A stretch of DNA of 64,000 nucleotides. Origin: Acidimicrobiales bacterium. GTDB lineage: Bacteria; Actinomycetota; Acidimicrobiia; Acidimicrobiales; Aldehydirespiratoraceae. Below the pieces are notes generated by a model. It was not told where the DNA came from, searched no databases, and saw only the letters and a list, made by a program, of their open reading frames with translations. The DNA lies in the NCBI GenBank assembly GCA_963667505.2, contig OY763490.2, positions 3,312,343 through 3,376,342 on the forward strand, written 5' to 3'. Shown here piece by piece: positions 19,213 to 53,452 of this stretch (positions within the stretch are counted from its first letter, which is position 1; each line of letters opens with the position of its first letter). Made by a program: the position numbers and the translations under genes.

Positions 19213-20178
19213 TCACGGCTGGCCGAAGAAGGAGGCGGCTAGCACGTCGTAGTTGATGCGGCCGGCGCTGTAGGTGCGTCCGCTGGCCAGGTTGGTGAGA
19301 TGGATCTCGGCCGGGGAGTGCAGCTCGATGGGGATCTCGTAGAAGTCCCGACCGGCGTCCTCGTAGATCTCGATGAACGGGCGCCCGTAGGCAGTGCTGG
19401 CCGCGGACACCACCCGGTCGACGATCTCGGCGCACTGGGCGTCGTCGGCCTCGACGGTCACGTTGGCGATCCCGCCGTAGAGCAGGCTGTCGTTGATGCG
19501 GCCCATCGAGACCAGGTCGTCGTCCACCAGCGGCGGCACCACCCCCAGCCCGTAGGCGTAGCGCAGGCCCCGCAGGTCCATGCCCTCCTCGGCCAGGCGG
19601 TGGATGGACTGCTCCACGATGCGGGCCGCCACCTGCACCGCGGTGACCAGGCTGCGGTTGGGGGCGAACAGCACGTACAGGTCGGCAGGGCCGACCCGGC
19701 AGGCCGAGGCGATCATGTCGGCCATCTCCACCGGCACCGGATCGGACGTCTGAATGGCCACCACCGACTCGTGGTGGTCGTCGCGGTAGTCGGTCCACTC
19801 GAAGTAGTGGTCGAGGCTGTCGCGGTTCAAGGCCCGACCCGGCCCGGCCAGGATGGCGGCGTGCTCGGTGCCGGGAGCCTGCAGGCGCCATCCGGCGATC
19901 TGCGAGGCCACGCAGGCCTCGATGGGATGGTCGATCATCACCCGCACCGCGGTGAGCATCCGCCCGGCCAGCTCGAACGGCTCGTAGCTCACGATCCCGA
20001 GCCCGCCCAGGCTGGCCAGCGTGTAGAGCTGAGCGGCCCGCCAGCCGCCCTTGGCCTCCAGGCCCATGTCGATGACGGTGGTGCCGTTGTCGAGCCGGTC
20101 CACGGCCACGCCCAGCGCGTCGGCCTCGTCCAGGATGAGCCGCACCGTCCTCATCGCCTCACGGTTGACGCTGATCAT
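19213..20178 (-). CDS. mch: methenyltetrahydromethanopterin cyclohydrolase homologue
   Basis: 321 aa. N-terminal SVNREA...LDNGTTVIDMG, then MGRINDSLLYGG, YGRPFIEIYE..DFYEIP, and the tail LASGRTYSAGRINYDVLAASF match the Mch pattern as I recall it. Confidence 0.7.
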   Translation of the reverse strand: MISVNREAMRTVRLILDEADALGVAVDRLDNGTTVIDMGLEAKGGWRAAQLYTLASLGGLGIVSYEPFELAGRMLTAVRVMIDHPIEACVASQIAGWRLQAPGTEHAAILAGPGRALNRDSLDHYFEWTDYRDDHHESVVAIQTSDPVPVEMADMIASACRVGPADLYVLFAPNRSLVTAVQVAARIVEQSIHRLAEEGMDLRGLRYAYGLGVVPPLVDDDLVSMGRINDSLLYGGIANVTVEADDAQCAEIVDRVVSAASTAYGRPFIEIYEDAGRDFYEIPIELHSPAEIHLTNLASGRTYSAGRINYDVLAASFFGQP

Positions 20179-20211
20179 GTCTGCCTCCTGACTCGCCTGC
20201 CCGGAGCTCCC

Positions 20212-20988
20212 TCAGGCGGGGGTGGACTCGCGGGCGCCGAGGGCCGCGTCCACCGGGATGATCGCGCCGTTGAGGTAGCTGGCCTCGGGCGAGGCCGCGA
20301 ACAGGATGGCCGCGGTGATCTCCTCGGGACGGCCGAAGCGGCCCTCGGGGATGTGGCGCTGCACCGCGGCCTGCACGTCGGGGTCGCGCATCCCGGCCAG
20401 CAGCGCCTCGGTGGCGATCAGCCCGGGGGCCACCGCGTTGACCCGCACGCCCTTGGGGCCGAGCTCCAGGGCCATCGCCCGGGTCAGGCCCTCGACTGCG
20501 CCCTTGGAGGCGATGTAGGCGCAGCGGTTGGCCACGCCTAGCCGGGCCAGGATCGAGCTGAGGTGGACGATGGCGCCCTGGCCCCGCTCGGCCATCCCGG
20601 CGGCCACCAACTGGCTCAGCTGGAACAGCCCTCTCACGTTGGCCAGCCATACGGTGTCGAAGGCCTCCAGAGAGAGGTCGAACATCGACGAGCGGTCGAT
20701 CAGCGCCGCGTTGTTGACCAGGATCGACACCGGCCCCAGCGCGGCCTCGACCTCCCTTGCGAGTCGGTCGACGTCGTCCTCGCGGCCGATGTCGGCTTGG
20801 AAGACCTCGGCCTCGCCTCCCGCATCGATGATGGCCTGCCGAGTGGAGATAGCGCCGTCGGCGTCGTTGCGGTAGTTGACCGCGACCAGCGCCCCCTCGG
20901 CTGCGAAGGCCTTGGCGGTGGCCGCGCCGATACCGCGCGAGGAGCCGGTGACCAGCACGGTGCCGCCGTCGAAGCGGTCAGGCCTCAT
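20212..20988 (-). CDS. short-chain dehydrogenase/reductase (FabG-like)
   Basis: VLVTGSSRGIG, NNAA, and YIASKGAVEGLTR motifs. Confidence 0.85.
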   Translation of the reverse strand: MRPDRFDGGTVLVTGSSRGIGAATAKAFAAEGALVAVNYRNDADGAISTRQAIIDAGGEAEVFQADIGREDDVDRLAREVEAALGPVSILVNNAALIDRSSMFDLSLEAFDTVWLANVRGLFQLSQLVAAGMAERGQGAIVHLSSILARLGVANRCAYIASKGAVEGLTRAMALELGPKGVRVNAVAPGLIATEALLAGMRDPDVQAAVQRHIPEGRFGRPEEITAAILFAASPEASYLNGAIIPVDAALGARESTPA

Positions 20989-21075
20989 GTTCGGCCTCCT
21001 CGCGCGGGGATGTGGTGACGTGCTCGCGGGCGTTGTCGCCGGACTCGAGGTGGGGCCTCATGTCCGGCCTCCTCG
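20981..21075. repeat. 22-bp duplication of the SDR ribosome-binding/start region (GGCCTCATGTYCGGCCTCCTCG) 73 bp apart
   Basis: Copy 1 at 20981-21002 contains the SDR ATG. Copy 2 at 21054-21075 contains the lipoyl-gene stop. Confidence 0.8.
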
Positions 21076-21333
21076 GATGGCGGCGGCCTCGGCCTCGTCG
21101 TCGGCGATCACGGCCAGCACCGTGCCCACGTCCACGGTCTCGTCCTCCTCCACCAAGATCCGGGCCACCACCCCGGCGCAGGGTGCCTCCAGTTCGTTCT
21201 CGACCTTCTCGGTCTCGACCTCGGCGATCATCTCGCCCTCCACCACATGGTCGCCCTCGTCCACGTACCAGGCCACCACGGTGCCGTCCTCCATGGTCAG
21301 CCCCCACTTGGGCAGGATCACGTCTGTGCTCAT
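21058..21333 (-). CDS. stand-alone lipoyl-attachment domain protein (E2 lipoyl domain only)
   Basis: 91 aa. ILPKWGLTMEDGTV..., and AEVETEKVENELEAP with the candidate lipoyl-Lys43. No peripheral-subunit-binding domain and no catalytic acyltransferase domain. Confidence 0.75.
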   Translation of the reverse strand: MSTDVILPKWGLTMEDGTVVAWYVDEGDHVVEGEMIAEVETEKVENELEAPCAGVVARILVEEDETVDVGTVLAVIADDEAEAAAIRGGRT

Positions 21334-21372
21334 CGGCGACTCCTCATCTTTGGGCCGTGGCGGTCCGCCGGG

Positions 21373-22502
21373 TCAGTACTCGGCGGCCTTGGCGATGGCC
21401 GCGGCTATGTCGTCGGTGTCGGGGAGGACTACTTCCTCTAAGGGCACCGAGAACGGAATGGGGGTGTCCAGGCCGTCCACCCGCACCACCGGGCCCCGCA
21501 GGTCGGCGAAGCACTCCTCGCTGATGCGGGCGCTGAGCTCGGCGCCGAGCCCGCCGATGCGGGGCGCCTCGTTGGCCACCACCGTCCGGCCGGTCTTGAC
21601 GGCCGAGGCCAGAACCGTCTCAGCGTCGTAGGGCCTGATGGTACGCAGGTCCACCACCTCGACGGACACGCCGTCGGCTGCGGCCCGCTCGGCCGCCTCC
21701 AGCGCCATCGGCACCATGCGCATGGCCGCCACCACCGTCACGTCGGTGCCCTCCCGGGCCACCGCGGCCTGCCCCAGCGGGACGGTGTAGTAGTCGGGGG
21801 GCACTTCGGCCCGGCTGCGGTACAGGGCCTTGTGTTCCAGGAAGAGCACCGGGTCGTCGCTGTCGATCGACGCCAACAGCAGGCCCTTGGCGTCCACCGG
21901 GTTGGACGGCGCCACGATCACGATGCCAGGCACGTTGAGGAACCAGCCCTCCACGCTTTGGGAGTGGTGCGGGCCGCCGCCGAACCCGCCCCCGCAGGCG
22001 GTGCGGATCACCAGCGGCGCGGTGAACTGGCCGTCGAACATGTAGTGGAGCTTGGCCACGTTGTTGACCACCTGGTCGTAGCACTCGGCGATGAAGTCGG
22101 CGAACATGATCTCGGCCACCGGGCGCATGCCGACCATGGCCGCGCCGGCGCAGGTGCCGATGATGGCCGCCTCCGACAGCGGCGTGTCGCGCACTCGCTC
22201 CGGCCCGTACTTGGCCAGCAGCCCCTTGGTGACGCCGAAGTCGCCGCCCATCTCGGCGATGTCCTCGCCGATGAGGAACATCTCGGCGTGCTTGTCCATG
22301 GCCAGGTCCAGGGCGTTGTTGAGGGCCTGGGTGAAGCTGGCCTTGCGCACCCGGTCGCGGCCCTTGCGCGGCTTGCGCCGGGCCCGGCGCTCCCGCGGCG
22401 CGCCCTCAGCGCCGGCAGGCGGGGCCTCGGCGGTTGCGGCCTGCGCGTCGGCGGAAGGGGTCTCGGCTGCTTCGGCGGTTGCGGTCGTGGTCTCGGCGGC
22501 GG

Positions 22503-22506
<4 letters not shown>
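21373..22506 (-). CDS. 2-oxo acid / acetoin dehydrogenase E1 component beta subunit, with an N-terminal Ala/Thr/Glu-then-Arg/Lys extension
   Basis: Start at ATG 22506 (ATGA overlap with the E1 alpha stop). The core from FTQALNNALD..FLIGEDI onward matches the transketolase-like pyrimidine-binding and C-terminal domains. Confidence 0.8.
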
Positions 22507-23480
<974 letters not shown>

Positions 23481-23548
23481 GACGGCTCCTCCTGTCTGGT
23501 CAGCTACAGGGACTGATCTGAGACGCTATCGAGCGGATACCCGCGCAT

Positions 23549-23600
23549 CGAAATTGGCGACGAAACCGCCCTCCCAGGGCGCAAATCGCCACCAATTTCG
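23549..23600. promoter_or_regulatory. imperfect palindrome (CGAAATTGG ... CCAATTTCG arms) between the flavin reductase stop and the E1 alpha start
   Basis: Read directly: 9-bp perfect arms at 23549-23557 and 23592-23600, with further partial complementarity inside. Confidence 0.25.
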
Positions 23601-23614
23601 TGCTGGTGGGGCTG

Positions 23615-24301
23615 CTAGCCGCCGTCAACCGCGGCGTCGGACGAGTCGGAGTACTCGTCCCACGGGATGCGGGGCAGGAAATAGGCGCCCTCGTCCACGG
23701 TGCGCAGGAAGGTCCGCAAGCCGAGCCGGGCGATGGCGCCGAGGCGCAGCGGGTCGATGCGGCCCCGCTCGTCGCATATCGACGAGTCGTAGGCCACCCA
23801 CACCACCTCGCCGATCACCAGGTGGACCTCGCCGAAGACCCGGCCCGGCGTTCCGAGGTCCACCACCTGGTGGACCACACACTCCAGGCGGGCCAGCGCC
23901 TCGCCGACGGCGGGGGAGCTGACCTTGGTAGCCGGCACCGGCGTCCATCCGGCCAGCTCGAACTCGTCGACCTCGCTGGGGGCCTCCATGGCCACCGTCT
24001 CGATGTCGTCGCGGAACGCCTCGCCGGTGACGTTGATCACGAAGTCGCCCGACGCCATGGCGTTGAGGTAGGTGTGCTTCAGGCTGCCGTCCTCCAGCAG
24101 CCCCATGGTGACCCCCACCAGCATCGGGTCGCCCGTGATGGGCAGGTAATAGCTCATCGGGGCGACGTTGTTCACGCCGTCGGGGCTGCGGGTGGACACC
24201 ATGGCGATGGGACGGGGCACGACCAGCTGCGAGAGCATGAACTGGCGGTCCATGGGCGGGTTCACAGCCGGGTCGAAAGTGACGGTGCGCTCGGGATCCA
24301 T
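23615..24301 (-). CDS. flavin reductase-like (FMN-binding split-barrel) protein
   Basis: PRPIAMVSTRSPDGVNNVAPMSYY pattern. Start at ATG 24301 (track alternative 24358). Confidence 0.75.
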   Translation of the reverse strand: MDPERTVTFDPAVNPPMDRQFMLSQLVVPRPIAMVSTRSPDGVNNVAPMSYYLPITGDPMLVGVTMGLLEDGSLKHTYLNAMASGDFVINVTGEAFRDDIETVAMEAPSEVDEFELAGWTPVPATKVSSPAVGEALARLECVVHQVVDLGTPGRVFGEVHLVIGEVVWVAYDSSICDERGRIDPLRLGAIARLGLRTFLRTVDEGAYFLPRIPWDEYSDSSDAAVDGG

Positions 24302-24395
24302 CGGTTCGGCGTCCTTCTCGGCCCTCTCTCCAGGCCGTCTCGGCGTCCGGTGTCTCAAGTGCCGTGCGGTTTGCGGGGTGCTGCCGCGGTCGGCT

Positions 24396-25565
24396 TCAGG
24401 CCCCGTTCGTAGGCCAATGACGGCGGTAGCGCCTCACCAGCCAGCGGTTGAACTGCACCAGGGTCTCCTCCTGCCACGAGTAGCGGCCCCGGGGGGCCAA
24501 GTGCGAGTTGAGGCCCTTCTGGGTCATGGTGTCGGCGTAGATGTCCTGCACGTTGAAGTTGTTGACCCCGGCCTCGGCTGCCTCGAACAGGTACTCGAAG
24601 AGCGGGTCCTCCAGCGCGGCGGGCTCCAGGCAGTAGCCGATGTGGATGGTGATGTGGCCGGTGTCCTGGGGGCTGATTATGAAGTAGGCCACCTCGTCGG
24701 GGACGATGGCCAATGCCAGCGTGGGCGGGATCAGCACGAAGCCGCCCCGCTTGCGCTGCTCGTCGGTGAGGTTGGAGAACACCGGCAGGATGCAGCGCTG
24801 GGTGGGGTTGAACGAGCTGTCGATGTCGGTGAAGTGCTGGATCCGGCCGATGGCGCCGTCGGTGTCGTCCCAGTCGAGGAAGTCGTTCATGTGGCTCGGT
24901 GCGAACGTCTGCAATGGTCCGTGCAGCCTGCTGGCGTGGTACGGGTCGTTGAAGTTCTCCATCATGACCTTCCAGTTCCACGGAAGATCCGGGATCGTCT
25001 TGCCTTCCAGGGTGGTGGTGGACTCCAGCCCGTAGTTGGCGAGCATGTCGTCGATCTTGGTCATGGTGGGGCCGAACGGGGGAGCGTCATGGTCGAAGTT
25101 GGCCATGATGAACCCGTGCCAGATCTCCACCTTGAGTTGGGGCAGCGGATGCTCGGACCGGTCGAAGCCGACGGCCCGGTCCATGGCCGGCGTGCCCAGC
25201 AGGGTGCCGTCGAGGCCGTAGCTCCAGTGGTGGTAGGGGCAGGTGAACCGACGGCAGTTGCCCGAACCCTCGGCGATCACCATGCCCCGATGGCGGCACA
25301 CCGCCGACATAACCCGCAGCTCGCCGTCAGAGTCCCGGGCCGCGATCAGGGGCTCGCCCGCGATGGCGATGCAGCGGAAGTCGCCCGGCTCGGGCAGTTG
25401 GTCGGTCCGGCCCACGCAGAGCCACTCCCGCTGGAAGATGGCCCGCCGCTCGAACTCGTAGAACTCCGGCGACGTGTAGAGCTCGGGCGGTAGCAGCCTG
25501 GCCTCGTCCACCGGCCCGATCGATTCCTCGAAGCTGGCCAGGAGTTCGTCGGTCAGCACCGTCAT
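24396..25565 (-). CDS. Rieske (2Fe-2S) non-heme iron oxygenase alpha subunit
   Basis: CRHRGMVIAEGSGNCRRFTCPYHHW Rieske motif. Start at ATG 25565 (track alternative 25604). Confidence 0.85.
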   Translation of the reverse strand: MTVLTDELLASFEESIGPVDEARLLPPELYTSPEFYEFERRAIFQREWLCVGRTDQLPEPGDFRCIAIAGEPLIAARDSDGELRVMSAVCRHRGMVIAEGSGNCRRFTCPYHHWSYGLDGTLLGTPAMDRAVGFDRSEHPLPQLKVEIWHGFIMANFDHDAPPFGPTMTKIDDMLANYGLESTTTLEGKTIPDLPWNWKVMMENFNDPYHASRLHGPLQTFAPSHMNDFLDWDDTDGAIGRIQHFTDIDSSFNPTQRCILPVFSNLTDEQRKRGGFVLIPPTLALAIVPDEVAYFIISPQDTGHITIHIGYCLEPAALEDPLFEYLFEAAEAGVNNFNVQDIYADTMTQKGLNSHLAPRGRYSWQEETLVQFNRWLVRRYRRHWPTNGA

Positions 25566-25604
25566 TGCTGGTGTTCTCCCTAGGTCTGCTCGCGTGCGGG
25601 CCAA

Positions 25605-28184: not shown

Positions 28185-28577
28185 TCAGTCCGGTAGTTCG
28201 ACTTCGCAGCGGATGCCGTCTGCCCGTGCCAGTCGCTGGTCATAGGTCAGCAGCGTGGCGCCTATCGTCTCAGCGAGGGCTACATAGGCCGCGTCGTACA
28301 CGGTGAGGTTGTCGCGCAGCTCCCAGCAGCGTGCCAGCAGCGGTTCATGAGGAACGCGAGTGACGGGCAGCACAGCCAGGTGCCGCAACCCGCTGCGAGC
28401 GAGCGGCTCCGCCAGTTCCCCCCGCCGAACGAGCCCCCTCAGTGCCGAAGTCACTTCGAGGTCGAGCACATGCGGCGCCAGCGCGGCCTCCTTCGTGATG
28501 CGGCGCAGCACCTTGAGGTTCCGCTCGCTCGATCCAGCCACCGCCTCCGTGGCCACGCTGGCGTCGACGACAATCAA
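28185..28577 (-). CDS. vapC: PIN-domain toxin VapC
   Basis: MIVVDASV N-terminus, 130 aa, with a 4-nt overlap with the upstream antitoxin gene. Confidence 0.8.
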   Translation of the reverse strand: MIVVDASVATEAVAGSSERNLKVLRRITKEAALAPHVLDLEVTSALRGLVRRGELAEPLARSGLRHLAVLPVTRVPHEPLLARCWELRDNLTVYDAAYVALAETIGATLLTYDQRLARADGIRCEVELPD

Positions 28578-28816
28578 TGCGACTCGCGATCGGCCCGAAT
28601 GATCTCCACGATCATGCTCGAATCCAAGTGCGTCTCACCATGAGAAAGAGCCTCTACCCGCTTGCGAGCGAGCATCTCCTCGGCGCTGGCGAGATCCGCC
28701 TGTCGACAGATCGCGTCAAGCATGTACTGTTGCAACGACTGGCTGGCCGCGGCAGCCCGGATCCTGAGCTTGCGATGGACGTCCTCGGGCACGTGTTTGA
28801 TCTGGATGGTGGCCAT
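28574..28816 (-). CDS. vapB: antitoxin VapB (FitA/Arc-like ribbon-helix-helix)
   Basis: MATIQIKHVPEDVHRKLRIRAA N-terminus typical of FitA-like antitoxins. 80 aa. Confidence 0.75.
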   Translation of the reverse strand: MATIQIKHVPEDVHRKLRIRAAAASQSLQQYMLDAICRQADLASAEEMLARKRVEALSHGETHLDSSMIVEIIRADRESH

Positions 28817-28891: not shown

Positions 28892-29602
28892 TCATCGCCC
28901 CCCATCCTCGTAGGCGACCGCAGCGGCGAAGCGCTCTGTGCCGATGTTGTGGAGCCTCCAAGTGACATCGGGCACCTCAGCGAACCGGAAGGAGCCGCTC
29001 GCAGCGCCTTGGCGCATGGTCTGGGGGATCTCGAAGCTGGCGACGTCCATTGAGAGGCCTGTTCCTAGGGCCTTGCTGAGGGCTTCCTTCATCGTCCACA
29101 GGTCGAGGAACAGACGGAGCTTGCGGCTTCCGCCGGCCGCGGCCATGTCGGCTCGTTCATCAGGGCCGAAGACCGCCTCGACCAGCGTGTCGAGGTTGCG
29201 CTGCGGGACCCGCTCCTCGACATCGACGCCCACCCGGCCGCGGGAGGCCAGCGCGATCAGGCCGTGCTGGCCGCTGTGGCTGACGTTGAAGCCGATGGGT
29301 GCCCGGAGTCTGTTGACGGTGGCGAAGGGCTTCCCGTGCTCGGCCGTGTCGAATGCGAGCTTGCGGTTGGCGCAGCCCAGAGAATCACAGAGCAGCGAGC
29401 GCAGAGACGCCCGGCACAGGACGTACCGGCGTCTGGCACCAGTGTGCTGGAAGCGGTGCGCTCTACGCCGCTCCTCGGCGTCCAGCCATGCCCAAGCCGC
29501 CCTCTCGTTGGCTTCGTGGCGCACCAAGTCGACATGCACGACAGTGACGCCGTCGAACTGCGTGAACGGCTGCCACCAGTCGCCGACGAGGCCGAGCGCC
29601 AC
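28892..29602 (-). CDS. 4'-phosphopantetheinyl transferase (Sfp type)
   Basis: FNVSHSG, GVDVE and WTMKEALSKALGTG motifs. Confidence 0.8.
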   Translation of the reverse strand: MALGLVGDWWQPFTQFDGVTVVHVDLVRHEANERAAWAWLDAEERRRAHRFQHTGARRRYVLCRASLRSLLCDSLGCANRKLAFDTAEHGKPFATVNRLRAPIGFNVSHSGQHGLIALASRGRVGVDVEERVPQRNLDTLVEAVFGPDERADMAAAGGSRKLRLFLDLWTMKEALSKALGTGLSMDVASFEIPQTMRQGAASGSFRFAEVPDVTWRLHNIGTERFAAAVAYEDGGR

Positions 29603-29685: not shown

Positions 29686-29928
29686 TCAGGTGCGGGCGTC
29701 GAGGTAAGCGACCAGATCGCTCGGCGTCAGCAACTCGCCGAACTCCTCGGCTGAGATGTCGATGCCGAACTCCTCGCACACGAGCTTCCAGAACGCCACG
29801 ACATCGGTGGAACTGACTCCCGAATCGACGATGCTGCGATCGTGGTTCAGCGGCTCACCCGGCTCCCTGCCCTCGATATGCAGGTTGTCGTCGATCAGAG
29901 TTCGAATGCGGTCCTCGGTGTTGGACAT
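29686..29928 (-). CDS. free-standing acyl/peptidyl carrier protein
   Basis: 80 aa with four-helix-type spacing. The candidate Ppant serine lies in VDSGVSSTDVV. Confidence 0.7.
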   Translation of the reverse strand: MSNTEDRIRTLIDDNLHIEGREPGEPLNHDRSIVDSGVSSTDVVAFWKLVCEEFGIDISAEEFGELLTPSDLVAYLDART

Positions 29929-30001: not shown

Positions 30002-30985
30002 TCAAGCTGCGAGCGTACTCCGTATCAGCCTTCGGTCGCGGTCGCTGAAGTAGGCACACTCCGCGAGGAGGTCGCCGTCCTTCGCTCCGGCTTCGGCGAT
30101 CTCGATGTGCTGGCGGGTGGCCGCCTTGTAGGGGAAGATTCCCTTGGCGTACTGCTTGGCGGGGAACTCCAGGGCCTGCGCCCGGTTCAGGTCGTAGCGC
30201 GAAGCCGCATCGATGAAACGCAGCACGTACGCGGCGCGATGCGAGAGCTCTCCCTCGCCGAGCATGACGCTCCGGTGGGCGACCGTCTTGTTGAACAGGA
30301 GCACATCGCCGGGATCGAAGTCGTCCTCCACCTGGTGCACCTCGAGAAGCTCATCCATCAAGGGGGAGTTCAGGATCCCCTCTCTGAGGCCGCTGTAGTC
30401 CACAAGACTCGTCCTGGTCCCGGACCGTTCTCTGGCCTTGAGCACCTCGACGACCGCCAAGTCCGCCGAGTAGACGAACTCGCCCGGCAGCACATGCTGA
30501 GGAACGTAGGCCATGCCGCCGCGCTGTCCGCTGGCATCTATGGGCTGCAGCGGCGCCCACAGCGTGCATCCGAAGTCCTCGGCGAACTGGAAGCCGAAGC
30601 TCTGCACGCCGACATGCCACGGAAACCCCTTGTTGACGTTCTTCTCGACCTCGAAGGACAACTCGAAGGTGAGAAAGAGGTCGTGGCCTGCCAAGCCGGT
30701 CAGAGCCTGCCGGAAATAGGGGCGCTCCAACAGCTCGAAAAGGTCGGTCTTGGCGGCCTCGAAGTCGTACTGCACCTTGCTGAACAGGGCGTTCTTGCCG
30801 CTGTAGGAGTTGGCGGCGCTGCGGTTCAACTCGATATCGGTGCGATTGAGCAGCATGCCGACCACGCTGGCATTCAGGAATCCCTCGAGCTTGACGAAAC
30901 CGTCGCGCTGGAATTGCTCCTTCTGCTCGTCGGTGACGACGAACTCGTTGTCGAAGGGATGGCCGGTCACGATGGGCTCAGGCAA
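30002..30985 (-). CDS. PhyH-family Fe(II)/2OG oxygenase with HxG at the first iron-ligand motif (candidate halogenase)
   Basis: N-terminal TDEQKEQFQRDGFV PhyH pattern. WHVG (His124, Gly126; nt 30608-30616) sits where PhyH hydroxylases have WHxD. Distal His in NKTVAHRS and Arg in RAAYVLRF. TTG 30985 or GTG 30970 start. Confidence 0.6.
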   Translation of the reverse strand: MPEPIVTGHPFDNEFVVTDEQKEQFQRDGFVKLEGFLNASVVGMLLNRTDIELNRSAANSYSGKNALFSKVQYDFEAAKTDLFELLERPYFRQALTGLAGHDLFLTFELSFEVEKNVNKGFPWHVGVQSFGFQFAEDFGCTLWAPLQPIDASGQRGGMAYVPQHVLPGEFVYSADLAVVEVLKARERSGTRTSLVDYSGLREGILNSPLMDELLEVHQVEDDFDPGDVLLFNKTVAHRSVMLGEGELSHRAAYVLRFIDAASRYDLNRAQALEFPAKQYAKGIFPYKAATRQHIEIAEAGAKDGDLLAECAYFSDRDRRLIRSTLAA

Positions 30986-31880
30986 GTCCGGCTGGCGCCA
31001 GGAAGCCGCGCATGGCCTCCACGCACTTGGCGGGCTGCTCCAACTGGAGGAAATGAGTGGCGTCGGGCAGGAAGTCGTAGTCCACGGTCAACATGTCGCT
31101 CAGGTCCAGAGTCGGCAGGTAGGAGTACGGCAGCGTCGGGTCGGCGCCGATCACCTTCGTGGGGCACTGCAGGGCCGAGAAGTCGACCAGCACCGCGAAG
31201 AGCCGCGCGTGGGCGATGATCTGCGCTTCATGCTCCCGCGGGCATCTCAGCTCGAAGCCGGAGCCGTCCTCGGACTCGCGCAAGGTCGTCGTCGCCATCA
31301 GGTCGATCACACCGGGCACGGTGTGCTTGAACGTGGGCATGAAGCCGAGCAGTTCCATGTAGTCCTCTCTGGTCTTGAAGCTCGGCGCTCGTCGGCTTGC
31401 CGCCTTGGCTGTCCGTTCGGCTGCCTCGTCGAACTCGTTCCTGGTCGCGCCCGGTTTGCGCAGGGGAGGATCGAACAGGATGAGGGCCGAGAGCCGGCTG
31501 CCGTTGGTGGGGGACAGCAGCGGCGCAAAGGACGAGACGGAGTGGAACACCCCGACCTGCGGCTTGGCGCCGTAGTGGCGGTCGATCTCGTCGAGGATGC
31601 GGTCGTGGTCGCTGACGAAGGTCGGCACGCTGTGGTTCGAGAGGGGACCGACGGCATTCCAGCCGTGGCTTCTCAGGTCGTAGACGACAAGGTCGAAGTC
31701 CTCGGTCAGCAGTGACCAGAACGGGTAGTAGAGATCAATCGACAGGCCGTTGCCGTGGCTGAGAATGAGCCGGGTGCCTTGGGGGTTGCCGTGGCGGCGC
31801 AGCACAATGGTCGTGTCCTCGTCCACCCGCACCTCGTGGGCGGACCGCGGCTCAGGGATGGCCCAGACAGGGTCTGACAT
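30978..31880 (-). CDS. alpha/beta hydrolase fold protein, paralogue A
   Basis: SHGNGLS oxyanion region, GVFHSVSS elbow, DATHFLQLE His region. Start at ATG 31880 chosen by alignment with paralogue B (track alternative 31976). Confidence 0.7.
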   Translation of the reverse strand: MSDPVWAIPEPRSAHEVRVDEDTTIVLRRHGNPQGTRLILSHGNGLSIDLYYPFWSLLTEDFDLVVYDLRSHGWNAVGPLSNHSVPTFVSDHDRILDEIDRHYGAKPQVGVFHSVSSFAPLLSPTNGSRLSALILFDPPLRKPGATRNEFDEAAERTAKAASRRAPSFKTREDYMELLGFMPTFKHTVPGVIDLMATTTLRESEDGSGFELRCPREHEAQIIAHARLFAVLVDFSALQCPTKVIGADPTLPYSYLPTLDLSDMLTVDYDFLPDATHFLQLEQPAKCVEAMRGFLAPAGLA

Positions 31881-32012
31881 GATGAGGCCGAAAGATTCGA
31901 TCCTGCGCCGAAGCCATGCTTGAGAGGCCCCTTCGTTGTCGGACGGTTCTTGGGGAGGCCGCGACCCTACTTCCAAGCCGTCCGAACTACTCGCACGGTT
32001 GCCTCAGCGCGT

Positions 32013-41774
<9,762 letters not shown>

Positions 41775-41841: not shown

Positions 41842-43590
41842 CTAGCTCGTCGACCTGACTTGCACGGTGACGATGTCGAGCCCGTGGAACTTCTGATGGT
41901 GCACCGACGAGGCGTAGTGGCGCAGCAGCTGCAGGGAGATCTCGCCGCCCTCGACGCCCTGGGCGCCCTGGGCCTCCTCGCTCAGGTACGCCAGCCGGTC
42001 CTCGAGGTTCTCGTCGTCGAACACGGCCAGGAACTCCAGCTCGATCACTGGTCCGCTGGGGCGGGCCTCGATGATCAAGCGGGGCGCCTTGTCGGCTCGC
42101 CCGTCGCTGCTCTGCTGGAGGCTGATCAGCGTCTCCTCCGCGGCGGCGTGCAGCCGCTGTGCCGAGGCGTCGTCCCAGCCCGCGGCGGCGGCCACCGGAT
42201 CGAGGAACTCGACGATGTCGGGCACAGAAGCCAGGTCCAGCCCGACCTCGAGCCGCCTCCGGCCGCGCGGGCCGGTCAGGTTCAGGAACACCGTCATCGC
42301 CACCGCGGCGACCGCGCCGGCCAGCAGCCCGTTGTCCAGAAGCTTGCCCCAGGTGCCCCCCAGCGTGTCGGCGATGATGGTCTGCTGGTCGAGGCCGGCC
42401 CCGAACGCGAACGCCAGTCCGGCCACCAGCGCCTTCTGGCCGTCGAGCCCGTCCTGCACGACCGACCGCACCCCGCCCATGAAGATCAGCGCGATGGCGG
42501 TGAGCACGTAGGCCGCCATCACCGGGCTGGGAATGGTCAGCAGGACGGCGGTCGCCTTGGGGAGAAACGCCAGCGCGGCCAGGGCCCCGCCGATCACCCA
42601 CCCGGCGCGCCGGGACGCCACCCCGGTGAGGCTCGTGAGCGACACGCTCGTGGACGAGTAGACGGTGGTGGGCGGCGCCCCGGCGAGGCCGGAGAACAGG
42701 ATGCCGAGCCCGTTGGTGTTCAGGGAGCCCTGCACGACCCGGAAGTCGGTGGCCCTCGGCCTGCGCCGGCAGGCCTGCTGCACGGCCACGCAGTCGCCCA
42801 TGTTCTTGACGCCGCCCACCAGGGTGACCACCACGAAGGCGGGCAGCAGGGTCCAGAAGCCGATGCCAGGCGTCAGGTCGATCCCCGGAAATCCAGCGTC
42901 GGGAATTCCGGCCCAGGGGGCGTCGGCCACCGGTGAGGCGTCGTAGGTGCCGAGCGGGATCGAGACGGCGCAGCCCGCGGCCAGGCCGACCACCGGTGAC
43001 CAGAGGCGCCAGGCGCCGGTGGCTCGAAATGCCATCGCCGCGGTGACGGCCAGCGTGACCAGGGTGATGGCGGGGCCGGCCGCGTCGGGCGCGCCCTCGG
43101 GCACCTCCTGGACCCTGTCGAACGCGACCGGCAGGATCGTGACCGCGATCAGCATGAGGACCGTGCCCGACACCACCGGCGTGATCACCCTGCGCAGCAG
43201 CGGCAGCCACAGCGCCAGCGCCACGTAGAACAGCGCCGCCGCGGCGGTGAGGCTGGCCAGCAGGGGCGGCCCTCCCTCGTTGAGGGCCAGCACCGAGACG
43301 GCCACGAAGTTGGGGGTGGTGCCCATGATCAGGATGTGGCCCGCGCCGAACCGCCACCACCTGGTCGCCTGGAGCGCGGTCAGGGTTCCGGCGATCACCA
43401 GCGAGGCGAAGACGGCCCATTGGAGGTAGCGGTCGTCCTGGCCGCCGGCTCGTGCGGTGACGGCCACGATCAGCACCAGCGGCGCCAGCGCGAGGACCGC
43501 GCCCTGCAGGCCCACCGCGGCCAGCACCGGCGCCGGGCACGGCTCGTCGGGCTCGAAGCGGATCGAGTCGTTGGTGCCCGGAGCGCTCAC
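41842..43590 (-). CDS. NCS2-like (xanthine/uracil permease family) transporter with a C-terminal ~143-aa soluble domain, paralogue T1
   Basis: ITPVVSGTVLMLIAVTILP and TGVASRRAGWVIGGALAALAFLPK...IPSPVMAAY follow NCS2 signatures. Soluble tail at 41845-42273. Confidence 0.65.
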   Translation of the reverse strand: MSAPGTNDSIRFEPDEPCPAPVLAAVGLQGAVLALAPLVLIVAVTARAGGQDDRYLQWAVFASLVIAGTLTALQATRWWRFGAGHILIMGTTPNFVAVSVLALNEGGPPLLASLTAAAALFYVALALWLPLLRRVITPVVSGTVLMLIAVTILPVAFDRVQEVPEGAPDAAGPAITLVTLAVTAAMAFRATGAWRLWSPVVGLAAGCAVSIPLGTYDASPVADAPWAGIPDAGFPGIDLTPGIGFWTLLPAFVVVTLVGGVKNMGDCVAVQQACRRRPRATDFRVVQGSLNTNGLGILFSGLAGAPPTTVYSSTSVSLTSLTGVASRRAGWVIGGALAALAFLPKATAVLLTIPSPVMAAYVLTAIALIFMGGVRSVVQDGLDGQKALVAGLAFAFGAGLDQQTIIADTLGGTWGKLLDNGLLAGAVAAVAMTVFLNLTGPRGRRRLEVGLDLASVPDIVEFLDPVAAAAGWDDASAQRLHAAAEETLISLQQSSDGRADKAPRLIIEARPSGPVIELEFLAVFDDENLEDRLAYLSEEAQGAQGVEGGEISLQLLRHYASSVHHQKFHGLDIVTVQVRSTS

Positions 43591-43609: not shown

Positions 43610-44542
43610 TCAGGCCAGACCGACCGACGCCAGGAAGCCGCGCAGCGCGGCGGCGCAGTCCGCGGGCTTCTCGAGCTGGAGGAAGTGGGTGGTGTCGGGC
43701 AGGAAGTCGTAGTCCACGGTCACCATCTCTCGCAGGTCCAACGGCGGCAGGTACGTGTAGGGCATGACCGGGTCGCCTCCGATGACCTTGGTGGGGCAGC
43801 GGAGGGCCTCGAAGTCGACCAGCACTGCGAAGATGCGGGCGTAGGCGATGATCTGGGCCTCATGCTCGCGGGGGCACCGTAGTTCGTAGCCGTAGCCGTC
43901 GGCGCTCTCCCGCAGCGTGGTCCGGGCCATCAACTCGTACATGCCGGCGACGGCGTGCTCGAACTTCGCCAGCGAGCGGAGACGGTCGGCGAAGTGCTCC
44001 CTGGTGGCGAACCGGAAGGAGCGGCGCTGGGCGATCTTGGCGGCCCGGTCGGCGGCGTCGTCGAAGGGGGTGCGGTCCGCGCCGGGCTTGCGCATCAGCG
44101 GGTCGAACAGGACGAGCGCGTCGAACCGGCTGCCCTCGGTGGGCGACAGCAGCGGCGCCAGCGCCGAGACCGAGTGGAACACGCCCGCCTGGGGCTTGGG
44201 GCCGTAGCGGCGGTCGATGGCGTCGAGGATGCGCTCGTGGTCATTGACGAGGTCGGGCACGGTGTGGCCCGCCAGCGGGCCGACCGGGTTCCAGCCGTGG
44301 CTCCGCAGGTCGTAGACGACGATGTCGAAGGTGTCGGTCAGCCGCGCCCAGAACGGGTAGTACAGGTCGACCGACAGTCCCACCCCGTGCGACACCACCA
44401 GCCGGGTGCCCAGCGGGTTGCCGTGCCGGCGCAGGACGATGGAGGCGCCCCCGTCCGCCTCGACCCTGCAGATCGACAGCGGCTCAGGAACAGGCCACGC
44501 CACCCCCGATCCCACCGGCCCAACCGTACCGGGCGCCGACAC
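43610..44542 (-). CDS. alpha/beta hydrolase fold protein, paralogue B
   Basis: Alignable end to end with 30978..31880. Shared blocks: IVLRRHGNP.GTRL, DLRSHGWN, GVFHSVS, LRCPREHEAQIIA, CPTKVIG, VDYDFLPD.THFLQLE. Confidence 0.7.
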   Translation of the reverse strand: MSAPGTVGPVGSGVAWPVPEPLSICRVEADGGASIVLRRHGNPLGTRLVVSHGVGLSVDLYYPFWARLTDTFDIVVYDLRSHGWNPVGPLAGHTVPDLVNDHERILDAIDRRYGPKPQAGVFHSVSALAPLLSPTEGSRFDALVLFDPLMRKPGADRTPFDDAADRAAKIAQRRSFRFATREHFADRLRSLAKFEHAVAGMYELMARTTLRESADGYGYELRCPREHEAQIIAYARIFAVLVDFEALRCPTKVIGGDPVMPYTYLPPLDLREMVTVDYDFLPDTTHFLQLEKPADCAAALRGFLASVGLA

Positions 44543-44560: not shown

Positions 44561-46309
44561 CTAGCCGCCCGCCCCGACGTGCACGGTCACGACGTCGAGG
44601 CCGTGGAACTTCTGGTGATGCACCGCCGACGCGTAGTGCCGCAGCAGCCTGAGCGAGATCTCTCCCTCCTCCAAGCCGTCGGTGCCCTGGGACTCCTCGC
44701 TCAGGTAGGCCAGCCGGTCCTCGAGGTTCTGCTCGTCGAACACGGCCAGGAACTCCATCTCCACCGCGTCTTCGCCGAGGCGCGCCTTCACTATCAGCCG
44801 GGGCGCGTCGTCGCTCGGGGCGTCGTCCTGCTCCAGCAGGCTCATCAGGGCCTCCTCGCCCGCGGAGCGGAGCCGTTGCGCGGCCGCTTCCTTCCAGCCG
44901 ACTCTGGACGCGAAGCGGGCGAGGAACTCGTCGATCTCTGTGAGCGCCGACATGTGGAGCCTGGACTCGAGCCGCCCGCTTCCCTTCCGGTCGGCGATGT
45001 TCAGCAGGCGTGTGATGAGGATCACGACCAGCGCGCCGACCAGCATGCCGTTGTCGATGAGCAGCCCCCATGGGTCGCCCAGCGTGTCGGTGCCGATGGT
45101 CTGGTTGTCGAGGCCCACGCCCAACGCGAACGCCACCCCTACCGCCAGCGTCTTTCCGGCGGAGAGGCCGTCGCGGATCACAGTCTGGATGCCGCTCACG
45201 AACACCAGGCCGATGGCGGTCAGCACGTAGGCCGCCAGGACCGGGCTGGGGATGGACAACAGCACTGCGGCCACCTTGGGCAGCAGCGCCACCGTCGCTA
45301 GCAGCGCGCCGATCCAGAAGCCGACGGCGCGTGCCGCCACTCCGGTGAATTGCACCAGCGACGAGCTGAACGACGAGTAGACGGTCGTTGGCGGGGTGCC
45401 CGCGAGGCCCGAGAGCACAATGCCGAGCCCGTTGGTGGCGAGTGATCCCTGCACCAGCCGGAAGTCGGTCGCCCGGCGCCGGCGCCGGGAGACTTGCTGA
45501 ATGGCGACGCAGTCCCCGATGTTCTTCATGCCGACCACGAGGGCCACCACCACGAATCCCGGCAGCAGCGCCAGGAACTCGGGGCCGGGAGTCAAGTCGA
45601 GTCCAGGGAGGCCGCCGTCGGGCAGGCCCGCCCATGCCGAGTCCAGGATCGGCCCGAGCTCGTATGCCCCGAAGGCGGCGGCCACGACGCAGCCGGTCGC
45701 CAGGGCCAACAGCGGCGACCAGACCCGCCACAAGCCGGTGAGCCGCGTCGTCAGCAGGAGCATGGCGATGAGCGTCACCAGCGCCACCACCGGGCCAGCG
45801 GCGGCGGGCGTGTCCTCGGGGATGTCCTGCAGCAGGTCGATCGCTATGGGCAGGATGGATGCCGCGATCAGCATGAGCACCGTGCCCGAGACTGTGGGCG
45901 TGACGATCCGGCGTAGCAGCGGAAGGCGCGAGGCCAGAGCGAGGTAGCACAGCGATGTCGCCACGGTGAGGCTGGCCAGCAGGCCCGGGCCGCCGACGGT
46001 GAGGGCCAGCACCGAGACAGCCACATAGTTGGGGGTGGGTCCCATGATCAGGATGTGGCCCGCGCCGAACCGCCACCACCGGGTGGCCTGCAGCGCGGTG
46101 AGGACTGCGGACACAATCAAGGAGGCGAAGATGGCCCAGGCCAGGTAGCCGTCGTCCTGATCGCTGGCCCGGACGGTGATGGCCACGACCACCACGATCG
46201 ACACCAGAACCATGGTCAGCCCCTGAGCGCCGACGCCGAGAGCCAGCCGCGGCGGGCAGGGCTCGTCCGGCTCGTAGCGAATGGCGTCGTCGGCGTTCTG
46301 GGCGGTCAT
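44561..46309 (-). CDS. NCS2-like transporter with C-terminal soluble domain, paralogue T2
   Basis: Shares IRYEPDEPCP, LQATRWWRFGAGHILIMG, FLAVFDEQNLEDRLAYLSEE and LLRHYAS.VHHQKFHGLD with T1 and T3. Tail at 44564-44992. Confidence 0.65.
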   Translation of the reverse strand: MTAQNADDAIRYEPDEPCPPRLALGVGAQGLTMVLVSIVVVVAITVRASDQDDGYLAWAIFASLIVSAVLTALQATRWWRFGAGHILIMGPTPNYVAVSVLALTVGGPGLLASLTVATSLCYLALASRLPLLRRIVTPTVSGTVLMLIAASILPIAIDLLQDIPEDTPAAAGPVVALVTLIAMLLLTTRLTGLWRVWSPLLALATGCVVAAAFGAYELGPILDSAWAGLPDGGLPGLDLTPGPEFLALLPGFVVVALVVGMKNIGDCVAIQQVSRRRRRATDFRLVQGSLATNGLGIVLSGLAGTPPTTVYSSFSSSLVQFTGVAARAVGFWIGALLATVALLPKVAAVLLSIPSPVLAAYVLTAIGLVFVSGIQTVIRDGLSAGKTLAVGVAFALGVGLDNQTIGTDTLGDPWGLLIDNGMLVGALVVILITRLLNIADRKGSGRLESRLHMSALTEIDEFLARFASRVGWKEAAAQRLRSAGEEALMSLLEQDDAPSDDAPRLIVKARLGEDAVEMEFLAVFDEQNLEDRLAYLSEESQGTDGLEEGEISLRLLRHYASAVHHQKFHGLDVVTVHVGAGG

Positions 46310-46313
46310 CGGG

Positions 46314-48122
46314 CTAGCCCGCGGCGTTGACCTGCACGGTCACCACGTCCAGTCCGTGGAACTTCTGGTGATGCACCGATGAGGCGTAATGCCTCAGCAG
46401 CCTGAGCGAGATCTCGCCGTTCTCCGTGTCGGAGACGCTCTGTGACTCCTCGCTCAGATGGGCGAGGCGGTCTTCTATGTTCTGCTCGTCGAACACCGCC
46501 AGGTACTCCATCTCCACGGTCGCCCCGCTGTTGCGGGCGACCACGATCAGACTGGGAGAATCGTCGGCCGAGTCGGCGACCGGGTGTTCGTCGTGTTGCC
46601 GGGCTGGGCCTGGCGGCGCCTCCTCGTTCGGGCGGTCGCCCTGGTCCAGCAGGCTCATCAGCGTCTCCTCGCCGGCGGCACGAAGCCGCTGCGCGGCGGC
46701 GTTGTTCCACCCGATGTCGGCCGCGAAGCCGCGGAGGAACTCGTCGATCTCGTTCACGGACGAGGGATGCAGGTCGACCTCGAGGCGCGCCCGCCGGCCT
46801 CGGCTGGACAGCTCCGCGAGCCGGGTCAGCACCACCGCGGCCACCGTGCCGGCCAGCAGGCCGTTGTCGAGCAGCGGCGCCCATGTCTCGCCCAGCACTT
46901 CGGCGCCGACGGTCTGGTTGTCCAAGCCCACGCCCAAGGAGAACGCGAGCCCTACCGTGATGGCCTTGCCCCGGTCGAGGCCGTCGGCCACCATTGCCTG
47001 GACGCCGCGCCCGAACAGCACTCCGATGGCAGTGACCAGATAGGCGCCCATCACCGGGCTGGGGATGGCCAGCAGCACCGCGGTCACCTTGGGCATCAGC
47101 GCCAGCATCACCATGATCAGCCCGATGGCGTAGCCGACGCGGCGGGCGGCCACGCCGGTGAGGCTGATCAGCGAAGGGCTCGACGACTCGTAGACGCTGG
47201 TGGGCGGCGTGCCGGCGATGCCCGACATCAGTATTCCGAGTCCGTTGGTGTTGAGCGATGCCTGCACCAGCCGGAAGTCGGTCACCCGGGGCTTGCGCCA
47301 CGACAGCTGCTGGATGGTCACGCAGTCGCCGATGCTCTTGACGCAGCCCACTAGGGAGACCACCACGAACCCCGGCAGCAGGGCCCAGAACTCGACGCCC
47401 GGGGTCAGATCCAGTCCCGGGAATTCGGCTGCGGGGAGCCCGACCCATGCGGCGTGACGAATGTGCTCGACGTCGTAGGCACCGAACGGCACCGCCGCCA
47501 GGCACCCGGAAGCGATGGCCATGAACGGCGACCAGATACGCCAGGAACCTGAGACCCGCACGGACAGCACCACCACCGCGGCCAGGGTCACCAGAGCCAC
47601 CACCGGGCCGGCCGCGGCGGGCGCGTTCTCGGGCACCTCGTCCACCCGGTCGAGCGCGACCGGCAGGATCGTGGCCGCGATCAGCATGCACACCGTGCCC
47701 GACACCACTGGCGTGATGACCCGGCGCAGCAGCGGGAGCCAGAGGGACAGCACGGTGTAGAAGATCCCGGCAGCGATGGTGAGGCTGGCCAGCAGGGTCG
47801 GACCGCCCGCGGTCAGCGCCAGCACCGCGAGCGCCACGTAGCTGGGCGTCGGCCCCATGATCAGGATGTGGCCGGCGCCGAGTCGCCCGAAGCGCCCCGC
47901 CTGCATCGCAGTCAGCAGTCCGCCGATGATCAGCGAGGCGGCCACCGCCCACGTGAGGTAGCTCTCGCCCTGGTTGCCCGCCCGGGCGGTGATGGCCACG
48001 ACCAGCACCATCGTCGTCAGCGCGAGCATCACTCCCTGGGCCCCGACGACCAGCGCTATCAGGGGCGGGCAGGGCTCGTCCGGCTCGTAGCGGATGGCGT
48101 CCTCAGACTGCGGAGCGCTCAT
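46314..48122 (-). CDS. NCS2-like transporter with C-terminal soluble domain, paralogue T3 (20-aa insertion in the tail)
   Basis: Same conserved blocks as T1 and T2. Tail at 46317-46805. Confidence 0.65.
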   Translation of the reverse strand: MSAPQSEDAIRYEPDEPCPPLIALVVGAQGVMLALTTMVLVVAITARAGNQGESYLTWAVAASLIIGGLLTAMQAGRFGRLGAGHILIMGPTPSYVALAVLALTAGGPTLLASLTIAAGIFYTVLSLWLPLLRRVITPVVSGTVCMLIAATILPVALDRVDEVPENAPAAAGPVVALVTLAAVVVLSVRVSGSWRIWSPFMAIASGCLAAVPFGAYDVEHIRHAAWVGLPAAEFPGLDLTPGVEFWALLPGFVVVSLVGCVKSIGDCVTIQQLSWRKPRVTDFRLVQASLNTNGLGILMSGIAGTPPTSVYESSSPSLISLTGVAARRVGYAIGLIMVMLALMPKVTAVLLAIPSPVMGAYLVTAIGVLFGRGVQAMVADGLDRGKAITVGLAFSLGVGLDNQTVGAEVLGETWAPLLDNGLLAGTVAAVVLTRLAELSSRGRRARLEVDLHPSSVNEIDEFLRGFAADIGWNNAAAQRLRAAGEETLMSLLDQGDRPNEEAPPGPARQHDEHPVADSADDSPSLIVVARNSGATVEMEYLAVFDEQNIEDRLAHLSEESQSVSDTENGEISLRLLRHYASSVHHQKFHGLDVVTVQVNAAG

Positions 48123-49526: not shown

Positions 49527-49583
49527 GCGGCGCCGCGTGACCGACACGACATGAGCTGGCGCCGCGTGACCGGCACGACATGA
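49523..49583 (+). repeat. 29-bp tandem duplication of the stop/start junction (ATGAGC.GGCGCCGCGTGACCGRCACGAC)
   Basis: Units at 49523-49551 and 49551-49579, then the aldolase ATGAGT at 49580. Creates two mini-ORFs (MSGAA*, MSWRRVTGTT*). Confidence 0.85.
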
Positions 49584-50365: not shown

Positions 50366-50458
50366 CGGGAGGCTGGGTGCCGCCGATGGTTGCGCAGCCG
50401 GTGTCGGAGTCCGCCGCGGCGGCGACGGCCGCGGCGTGAGGCTCGCAGAGTCCCGCTG

Positions 50459-51025: not shown

Positions 51026-51057
51026 ATGCGGCCAGAACACCGAAGCGAGGTGCCGAC

Positions 51058-53078: not shown

Positions 53079-53083
53079 CAGCC

Positions 53084-53389
53084 ATGGTGAGAATGGTCCG
53101 CAAGGCTCAGGTCGACTCCAGCGACGTGGCCCGGGTGCGCGAGTGGATCCAGCGGTACACCGGCTATATGGCCGCGGCCGACCCCGACCGGGTGACGGTC
53201 ACGTCCTGGATGGAGGCCTACGGCGCCTACGGCAAGGTGTATTGGATGATCGACGCTCCCGACCTGGGCACTCTCGACGAGTTCTTGGAGGGGCTGCCCG
53301 CCGAGGAGGGATACCGGGACATCCTCAAGGCGGGCAGCGAGTTGTTCGTCTCGGGCCAGACCAGCGACATGCTGCTCAAAGAGGTCTGA
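53084..53389 (+). CDS. hypothetical small protein
   Basis: 101-aa ORF with non-shadow composition, tightly packed between its neighbours. No family recognised. Confidence 0.4.
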   Translation: MVRMVRKAQVDSSDVARVREWIQRYTGYMAAADPDRVTVTSWMEAYGAYGKVYWMIDAPDLGTLDEFLEGLPAEEGYRDILKAGSELFVSGQTSDMLLKEV

Positions 53390-53452
53390 GTCCTAGGCTT
53401 GCCTCCCTGTCGGGGCGGGTCCGCGATCCTGCCCCGTCCAGGCGGAGCAGCC

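Follow-up and report, generated by a model that had tools for sequence, protein, structure and literature searches.

The gene at positions 30002-30985 of the minus strand of the window (the 64,000-nucleotide stretch of Acidimicrobiales bacterium contig OY763490.2 analysed here) encodes a member of the BtnX family of Fe(II)/2-oxoglutarate (2OG) radical halogenases, and we are confident that halogenase chemistry is the right assignment for this protein. The gene lies in a conserved cluster built around a single-module polyketide synthase (PKS) that is likely, from its domain layout, to be of the Sup type. We lean, with moderate confidence, towards the more complete statement that the enzyme alpha-halogenates the released acid product of the co-clustered synthase. 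The enzyme type was already published in 2026 (BtnX); what is new is its context in a Sup-like PKS cluster.

The best match to the protein among all PDB sequences is BtnX (9pv1_A, E 9.4e-119), with an alignment that covers residues 6-326 of 327 at approximately 58% identity. The second and last significant match is the halogenase domain of CurA (CurA Hal, 3nnf; E 7.2e-28, approximately 25% identity). A profile of 39 homologues searched against the whole PDB matches only the same two proteins (BtnX, 1e-148; CurA Hal, 1e-35). An earlier note on this DNA, made from the letters alone, had read the protein as a carboxylate-less HxG Fe(II)/2OG halogenase, and the identity of its nearest solved relative agrees with that reading. 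The earlier note had also listed CurA Hal as an HxA enzyme; CurA Hal in fact reads WHVG. There is no PDB sequence match at E ≤ 10 between the window halogenase and SyrB2-type proteins. SyrB2, CmaB and CytC3 share the chemistry class (Fe/2OG enzymes in which the carboxylate ligand is lost) but they have HxA and need an adenylation-thiolation loading protein, whereas the window protein has HxG and there is no such loader nearby.

BtnX (Dshi_3684; UniProt A8LT50; PDB 9PV1 and 9Q04) belongs to the 2His-1Gly Fe(II)/2OG radical halogenases and is encoded on a plasmid of Dinoroseobacter shibae (Kipouros & Chang, Nature, July 2026, PMC13489965). It converts biotin to 2R-chlorobiotin and it alpha-chlorinates, brominates and azidates very many free carboxylic acids with a propionate head group (PMC13489965). 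The 1.2 Å structure shows Y64, Q119, S120 and R248 holding the substrate carboxylate, with the remainder of the substrate in a solvent-exposed channel (PMC13489965). Mutation of G117 to Asp or Glu abolishes halogenation and turns the enzyme into a hydroxylase, and mutants of S120 or Y64 lose selectivity (PMC13489965).

The window protein has homology to BtnX over its full length and shares with it the 2His-1Gly site, the carboxylate-anchoring network and the H-R-S motif. H124, G126 and H237 align with H115, G117 and H229 of BtnX, which places Gly126 at the carboxylate position, as the earlier note had expected from the motif. The H124-V125-G126 codons (30608..30616) specify the proximal Fe ligand and the glycine that stands in place of the facial-triad carboxylate, and the H237 codon (30275..30277) specifies the distal Fe ligand within the invariant H-R-S motif. 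The four anchoring residues of BtnX are all retained: Y64 as Y73 (30767..30769), which in BtnX belongs to the hydrogen-bond network for reactivity and chemoselectivity; Q119 and S120, which hydrogen-bond the substrate carboxylate, as Q128 and S129 (30599..30604); and R248, which binds the substrate carboxylate and 2OG, as R256 (30218..30220). All these codons are on the minus strand. Metal-site and anchoring residues are also complete in every aligned Gly-type Sup-linked homologue. Going by the alignment, a carboxylate ligand supplied from elsewhere is conceivable in the window protein; BtnX has none. CurA Hal shares WHVG with the window protein, and with both proteins it shares the Ser after the motif and the counterpart of R256. 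Unlike the window protein, CurA Hal carries Gly where Q128 would be and Gln in place of R238.

Residue columns were counted over 121 sequences, made up of the 120 closest homologues (at least 62% identity) and BtnX. Both histidines are invariant (H237 in 121/121), and R256 (120/121), Y73 (119/121), S129 (117/121) and Q128 (115/121) are almost so. The switch column contains Gly in 111/121 sequences, Asp in five (P0041, P0052, P0060, P0088 and P0117), Glu in two (P0018 and P0114) and Cys in three (P0047, P0084 and P0098); in these last three S129 is replaced by Gly. Judged from the columns, glycine is a meaningful rather than a chance state, and it is not universal in the family. Since the column holds Gly, Asp and Glu, the family contains natural counterparts of the G117D/E switch, with the window protein on the halogenase side. 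One HxE form (P0018, locus L027) and one HxD form (P0117, locus L028) occupy the same PKS/permease cluster as the Gly forms. This is what interchangeable chlorination and hydroxylation of one product would look like, and we infer that lineages with an HxD or HxE variant would produce the 2-hydroxy analogue instead. Two further loci carry a second copy: a Chloroflexota locus (L032, 10010-12138) has tandem Gly-type and Asp-type paralogues, a possible halogenase and hydroxylase pair, and an acidobacterial cluster (L031, 8519-9448) has a second divergent copy in which the proximal His is replaced by Gln (PWQVG) and which is probably inactive.

The occurrence of HxD, HxE and HxC variants within one tight family raises the question of whether the window protein is a halogenase in vivo at all. 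It could instead be a hydroxylase, a desaturase or another 2OG oxygenase despite its HxG motif, or an inactive relic. Chemoselectivity in this type of enzyme hangs on substrate positioning, the S120 and Y64 mutants of BtnX lose selectivity (PMC13489965), and the match to the Pfam PhyH model is weak (E 6e-4; 20.5 bits, under the curated cut-off of 22 bits). However, the glycine occupies precisely the site at which mutation turns BtnX from chlorination to hydroxylation, Y73 and S129, which are needed for chemoselectivity, are retained, both histidines, the arginine and the H-R-S motif are intact, and codon usage is normal. We regard a non-halogenating or inactive protein as very unlikely.

An AF2 model made with the 39-sequence alignment (pLDDT 76.8, pTM 0.81) has the double-stranded beta-helix fold of the CurA-Hal/BtnX type. 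The top fold matches found by Foldseek are CurA Hal chains (TM 0.63-0.73, with 0.68-0.73 for the best match; probability 1.0) in a structure library with a cut-off of April 2026, which predates 9PV1. Of 1.84 billion cluster representatives, only 167 match the protein at E ≤ 1e-3, a number that falls to 37 when the threshold is E ≤ 1e-30, and the entire group with at least 50% identity falls into one representative. The family is therefore small and tight.

The reading frame at 30002-30985 is real, and its composition (GC at third codon positions 0.85, at second positions 0.43) is the same as that of the other genes of the window, which has 70.5% GC. Translation from TTG 30985 gives 327 aa, and this numbering is used throughout. 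There is an in-frame GTG at 30970 that gives 322 aa and is the start used by the public gene call (P0001), and the N-termini of the homologues begin at this position in the alignment. From this alignment, GTG 30970 is more likely to be the start than TTG 30985. The choice affects the 8-nt overlap with the upstream hydrolase gene claimed in the earlier note, which holds for the TTG start only; from GTG 30970 the gene would begin 7 nt after the hydrolase stop. The motifs reported in that note (W123-H124-V125-G126, NKTVAHRS with H237, RAAYVLRF with R256 and the PhyH-type N-terminus TDEQKEQFQRDGFV) are all in place in the translation. A search of NCBIfam gave no model for the protein.

The halogenase gene is one of a string of genes on the minus strand. 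Upstream there is a synthase of 3253 aa (32013..41774) with the domains KS-AT-DH-cMT-ER-KR-ACP-KS and a KS-AT linker, that is, a single-module type I PKS resembling a fatty acid synthase (FAS). Its terminal ketosynthase (KS) keeps the Cys and both His but is followed only by the KS-AT linker, with no acyltransferase (AT) or acyl carrier protein (ACP) domain (32013-33900). The orthologues in other phyla are approximately 110-210 aa longer, with a partial AT-like remnant after the terminal KS in at least L006 and L010. Between synthase and halogenase is alpha/beta-hydrolase A (30978..31976), a candidate thioesterase or esterase for release of the free acid (Abhydrolase_6, E 1e-10; weak esterase matches), the translation of which contains the motifs HGNG, FHSVS and DATHF. 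Downstream, at the 73-nt spacing that the earlier note gave, is a gene for a free-standing ACP of 80 aa (29686..29928; PP-binding, E 3e-7) with its own strong AAGGAAGGA ribosome-binding site. The ACP has a DSG motif with Ser36 and is AcpP-like; its best PDB matches are ACPs of FAS-II, although by AcpP models and the PDB search this resemblance is weak. A 4'-phosphopantetheinyl transferase (PPTase) of the Sfp/HetI type follows (28892..29602; ACPS, E 2e-18; HetI-like, E 3e-28). No terminator-like or promoter-like site was found on the minus strand between the hydrolase, halogenase, ACP and PPTase genes. On the far side of the synthase, also on the minus strand, there are three paralogous NCS2 permeases of the xanthine/uracil type (41842-43590, 44561-46309 and 46314-48122; 582, 582 and 602 aa) and a second alpha/beta-hydrolase (43610-44542). 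Each permease has a C-terminal extension of approximately 200 aa in which a Pfam scan detected no domain. The presence of a nucleobase-type transporter in the PKS cluster parallels the linkage of BtnX to the transporter gene bioY.

Thirty-one related loci were recovered and annotated from precomputed Pfam calls and by tblastn with the window proteins. They fall into three classes: linked to the PKS, linked to bioY and linked to neither. In the PKS-linked class no more than a few kb separate the halogenase homologue from the same KS...KR-ACP-KS synthase, except in L019, a 3.4-kb contig that holds only the halogenase and an ACP-PPTase pair. In most PKS-linked lineages there are also an orthologue of the alpha/beta-hydrolase (54-80% identical), a single NCS2 permease, and a PPTase together with a free ACP. 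The window lineage and the metagenome-assembled genomes (MAGs) of Acidimicrobiaceae (L001-L005 and L012, 80% identity) have the order PKS-halogenase-ACP-PPTase-amidase. In Gemmatimonadales (L006) the order is SDR-halogenase-ACP-hydrolase, convergent with permease-PKS. The Nitrospinae halogenase gene (L010) is convergent with PKS-ACP-PPTase-hydrolase-permease, and in Acidobacteria (L031) a halogenase-ACP pair has the PKS, hydrolase, PPTase and permease nearby. The remaining PKS-linked loci are from unassigned genomes (L018, L019, L029 and L030) or carry the HxE and HxD variants (L027 and L028). In Acidimicrobiia, Gemmatimonadales, Nitrospinae, Acidobacteria and unassigned genomes, this PKS, hydrolase and permease thus have beside them a homologue 62-80% identical to the window halogenase, and the synthase/hydrolase/permease cluster is conserved in at least nine lineages, from several phyla, besides that of the window. 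In most of the PKS-linked lineages sampled, the PKS and the oxygenase come with a single permease and a single hydrolase, and hydrolase, permease and PKS are steadier partners of the oxygenase across lineages than the ACP is. The suggestion in the earlier note that the halogenase belongs with the PKS is supported by this recurrence of the pair across phyla. Linked to neither are a copy from Acidobacteria that lies close to the end of its contig (L008) and the Chloroflexota tandem pair (L032).

The bioY-linked class (L014, L016 and L017, of which L016 is nearly identical to BtnX) reproduces the published context of BtnX. In each of the three the halogenase gene overlaps bioY; L016 and L017 also have the A and T components of a transporter of the energy-coupling factor (ECF) type, and L014 and L016 have Tn3 or conjugation genes. 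The 58% identity to BtnX and the identical active-site residue set could be taken to mean that the window gene is a true BtnX orthologue, a biotin 2-chlorinase for vitamin warfare that has nothing to do with the PKS. BtnX is promiscuous, and chlorination of biotin by the window enzyme in vitro would be no surprise. Against this, all BtnX-clade genes examined overlap bioY, and fusion to bioY/ECF genes on mobile elements is a feature of the clade, whereas no bioY or ECF gene was found in the window (best tblastn hit for bioY, E 0.95) and the window gene is inside a PKS-hydrolase-halogenase-ACP-PPTase string, with permeases alongside, that is conserved across phyla. In a neighbour-joining tree (midpoint-rooted and unbootstrapped) the bioY clade forms one derived branch among the PKS-linked sequences. 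Additionally, the bioY clade has three deletions relative to all other sequences: a shorter loop at window residues 57-66, no KGxFP (282-286) and no AEA (297-299). The longer loops are present in the window protein (at approximately 30788-30817, 30128-30142 and 30089-30097, respectively) and in all Sup-linked homologues. The loop at 57-66 falls in BtnX loop 50-57 and residues 282-286 adjoin BtnX 275-276; both of these BtnX loops are flexible and near the 2OG site (PMC13489965). The lack of bioY together with the longer loops makes the window protein a member of the BtnX family but not a BtnX orthologue in context or in loop architecture, and because context and loops differ the native substrate is probably not biotin. 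That the gene is a biotin chlorinase seems to us most improbable.

The sup ('sponge symbiont ubiquitous PKS') cluster was reportedly described by Fieseler et al. in 2007 and Siegl et al. in 2011, and in the former SupA is said to have a single KS-AT-DH-MT-ER-KR-ACP module followed by a second KS. The domain scan of the window PKS (KS-AT-DH-cMT-ER-KR-ACP, then a second KS) fits this layout, and Sup clusters share with the window a small single-module PKS, a FAS-like reducing loop, a C-methyltransferase and a terminal KS. The closest relatives of the first KS, at 60-74% identity, are PKSs from MAGs of Acidimicrobiaceae, Dehalococcoidia, Chloroflexota, Gammaproteobacteria, Acidobacteriota and Gemmatimonadota. 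These are typical sponge-symbiont phyla, and several contigs bear study codes (ENGE20 and ROBB21) that we believe to denote sponge MAG surveys. Sup-type PKSs are the most abundant PKSs of high-microbial-abundance sponge microbiomes. Sup clusters occur in MAGs of Acidobacteria, Chloroflexota, Gemmatimonadota, Nitrospinae and Acidimicrobiia, and the homologue loci show the window cluster to be spread across phyla in the same way, independently of taxonomy, as would be expected from the reported taxonomic independence of the SUP cluster families (PMC9426513). Methyl-branched fatty acids are the proposed product of the Sup synthase (PMC4245539, PMC3908369). The Sup literature consulted (PMC4245539, PMC3908369, PMC9426513) names no halogenase, hydroxylase, permease or hydrolase as part of the cluster, and the BtnX paper makes no mention of sponges or polyketides (PMC13489965). 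Our literature search, the scope of which lay outside the original sup descriptions, found no link between sup clusters and a halogenase or phytanoyl-CoA dioxygenase, and a search for 2-chloro or 2-methoxy sponge fatty acids returned nothing usable.

The data above show the conserved cluster, the family to which the protein belongs, its iron ligands and its anchoring residues. The mechanism follows by homology to the BtnX crystal structure, and the substrate, its free state and the halide are inferred. H124 and H237 would bind Fe(II), with 2OG chelating the iron, and chloride (or bromide) would fill the coordination site left free by G126. Activation of O2 and decarboxylation of 2OG would give a haloferryl species, Cl-Fe(IV)=O, which would take a hydrogen from the carbon alpha to the carboxylate that Y73, Q128, S129 and R256 keep in place; rebound of the resulting carbon radical onto the chloride would give a 2-halo acid. 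The KS-AT-DH-cMT-ER-KR-ACP-KS synthase would make the substrate, a carboxylic acid other than biotin and presumably a methyl-branched fatty acid. The adjacent alpha/beta-hydrolase most likely frees this acid from the carrier protein before halogenation. The free ACP and the PPTase would serve the terminal KS of the synthase rather than the halogenase, the simplest role for them because this KS is without an ACP of its own; the C-terminus of the PKS resembles a split module, with the free ACP as its missing part. Two other roles for neighbouring functions were considered and dropped. The alpha/beta-fold dehalogenases have Asp at the nucleophile-elbow position, and a haloacid-dehalogenase role for the hydrolase was dropped because its nucleophile elbow has Ser (FHSVS). 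A BioC/BioH-like dicarboxylate route was dropped because the methyltransferase is an in-module domain of the C-MT type.

Several points weigh against halogenation of a released acid. The ACP gene is directly downstream of the halogenase gene in three lineages (that of the window, in Acidimicrobiia; Gemmatimonadales, L006; and Acidobacteria, L031), and CurA Hal, the second-closest solved relative, is ACP-dependent. In addition, the open channel of BtnX tolerates very large tails, so a substrate tethered through phosphopantetheine is physically conceivable. The alternative is that the halogenase chlorinates a substrate thioester-linked to the adjacent free ACP, perhaps as a cryptic chloride for later chemistry. 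Most Sup-like clusters contain a PPTase and a free ACP, and some members of the wider BtnX family are co-clustered with ACP genes (PMC13489965). CurA Hal is also both the second sequence match and the best fold match in the structure library, and it keeps HVG, the following Ser and the Arg. However, CurA Hal is a domain inside a PKS module that acts on ACP-tethered (S)-3-hydroxy-3-methylglutaryl (HMG) supplied by an HMG cassette, whereas the window protein is free-standing and there is no HMG cassette. In the CurA pathway the chlorinated carbon of HMG-ACP is alpha to a free carboxylate. As the pocket anchors a free carboxylate, a tethered substrate would have to be a dicarboxylate attached through the opposite end, in the manner of (S)-HMG-ACP and CurA Hal; on an ordinary fatty acyl-S-ACP there would be no free carboxylate to be bound by Y73, Q128, S129 and R256. 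No dicarboxylate loader was found among the Pfam-scanned genes at 19.2-51.0 kb, which include no AMP-binding (adenylation) domain, HMG-CoA synthase (cassette) or enoyl-CoA hydratase gene. The adjacency also varies between lineages. The halogenase and ACP genes are adjacent on the same strand in 3/8 Gly-type PKS-linked lineages, the ACP gene of L019 is convergent, in L010 and L030 the ACP is directly after the PKS, and no ACP was found near the oxygenase in L029, L027 (HxE) or L028 (HxD). A simpler explanation for the AcpP-like ACP is that it partners the terminal KS. The SyrB1/SyrB2-like genomic logic that the earlier note saw in the neighbouring ACP falls away: there is no adenylation domain or other loader nearby, the ACP is AcpP-like and SyrB2-type proteins are unmatched. 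Dependence on a carrier protein appears to be supported neither by the closest characterised relative, which acts on free acids through an anchored carboxylate, nor by synteny, and we consider it a minority possibility and rather unlikely.

The other points against the proposal concern the protein, the hydrolase and the product. The segment YGKGLFPYKPxTRQHIEIAEAGA is almost invariant in all members outside the bioY clade; it overlaps low-confidence regions of the AF2 model and adjoins a flexible BtnX loop. This conserved loop near the active site could be a lid or a partner-docking element. We know of no enzymology for any Sup-linked member of the halogenase family, and the hydrolase is annotated only generically (Abhydrolase_6). 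The Sup assignment of the window PKS presumes that SupA has the architecture given above. We know of no 2-chloro methyl-branched fatty acids from sponges.

Downstream of the PPTase gene there are a VapBC pair and genes for an amidase, a Rieske oxygenase, a flavin reductase and E1 alpha and beta subunits. The VapBC-type pair (a PIN protein and a FitA-like ribbon-helix-helix protein; 28185-28816, minus strand) is inserted between the PPTase and amidase genes. A pair of this kind also immediately follows the halogenase homologue in L029 and lies close to the homologue in L008 and L028. The flanks of the cluster (19213-25604, minus strand, and 48345-54679, plus strand) contain genes for a methenyl-H4MPT cyclohydrolase (MCH), an SDR, E1 alpha and beta, a flavin reductase, Rieske oxygenases, a DeoC aldolase, a DUF1989 protein and an MFS transporter, with a stand-alone lipoyl/biotinyl-domain protein at 21058-21372. 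Rieske, DeoC, Ring_hydroxyl_B, DUF1989 and MFS genes flank the halogenase in L029 too, which may reflect lineage synteny or a wider catabolic island.

Taken together, the data show that the BtnX type has a second, apparently older home in a PKS/FAS-like cluster found across many bacterial phyla. It appears to be a regular tailoring enzyme of this widespread Sup-like cluster, interchangeable with hydroxylase variants, and the lipid product of the cluster may be halogenated next to the acid group. Radical halogenases that act on unactivated C-H bonds are rare and are wanted as biocatalysts. BtnX homologues with another loop architecture provide a set for enzyme engineering, and the natural Gly, Asp, Glu and Cys variants at the switch position are material for the study of halogenation versus hydroxylation. 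More tentatively, and with some doubt, Sup-type PKSs could regularly be accompanied by a BtnX-type alpha-carboxylate halogenase or by its HxD/HxE hydroxylase twin, their products being 2-halo or 2-hydroxy methyl-branched fatty acids. The context of the gene gives a testable prediction for the Sup-type product, which has been unresolved for approximately twenty years, namely that it consists of alpha-halogenated or alpha-hydroxylated acids. If the tentative reading is true, the alpha-halo acids would be reactive and could be alkylating defence lipids, or could give rise to the 2-hydroxy and 2-methoxy acids that are known from sponges. A biotin-transporter operon would in that case have captured this lipid-tailoring enzyme, and BtnX itself would be its recent offshoot.

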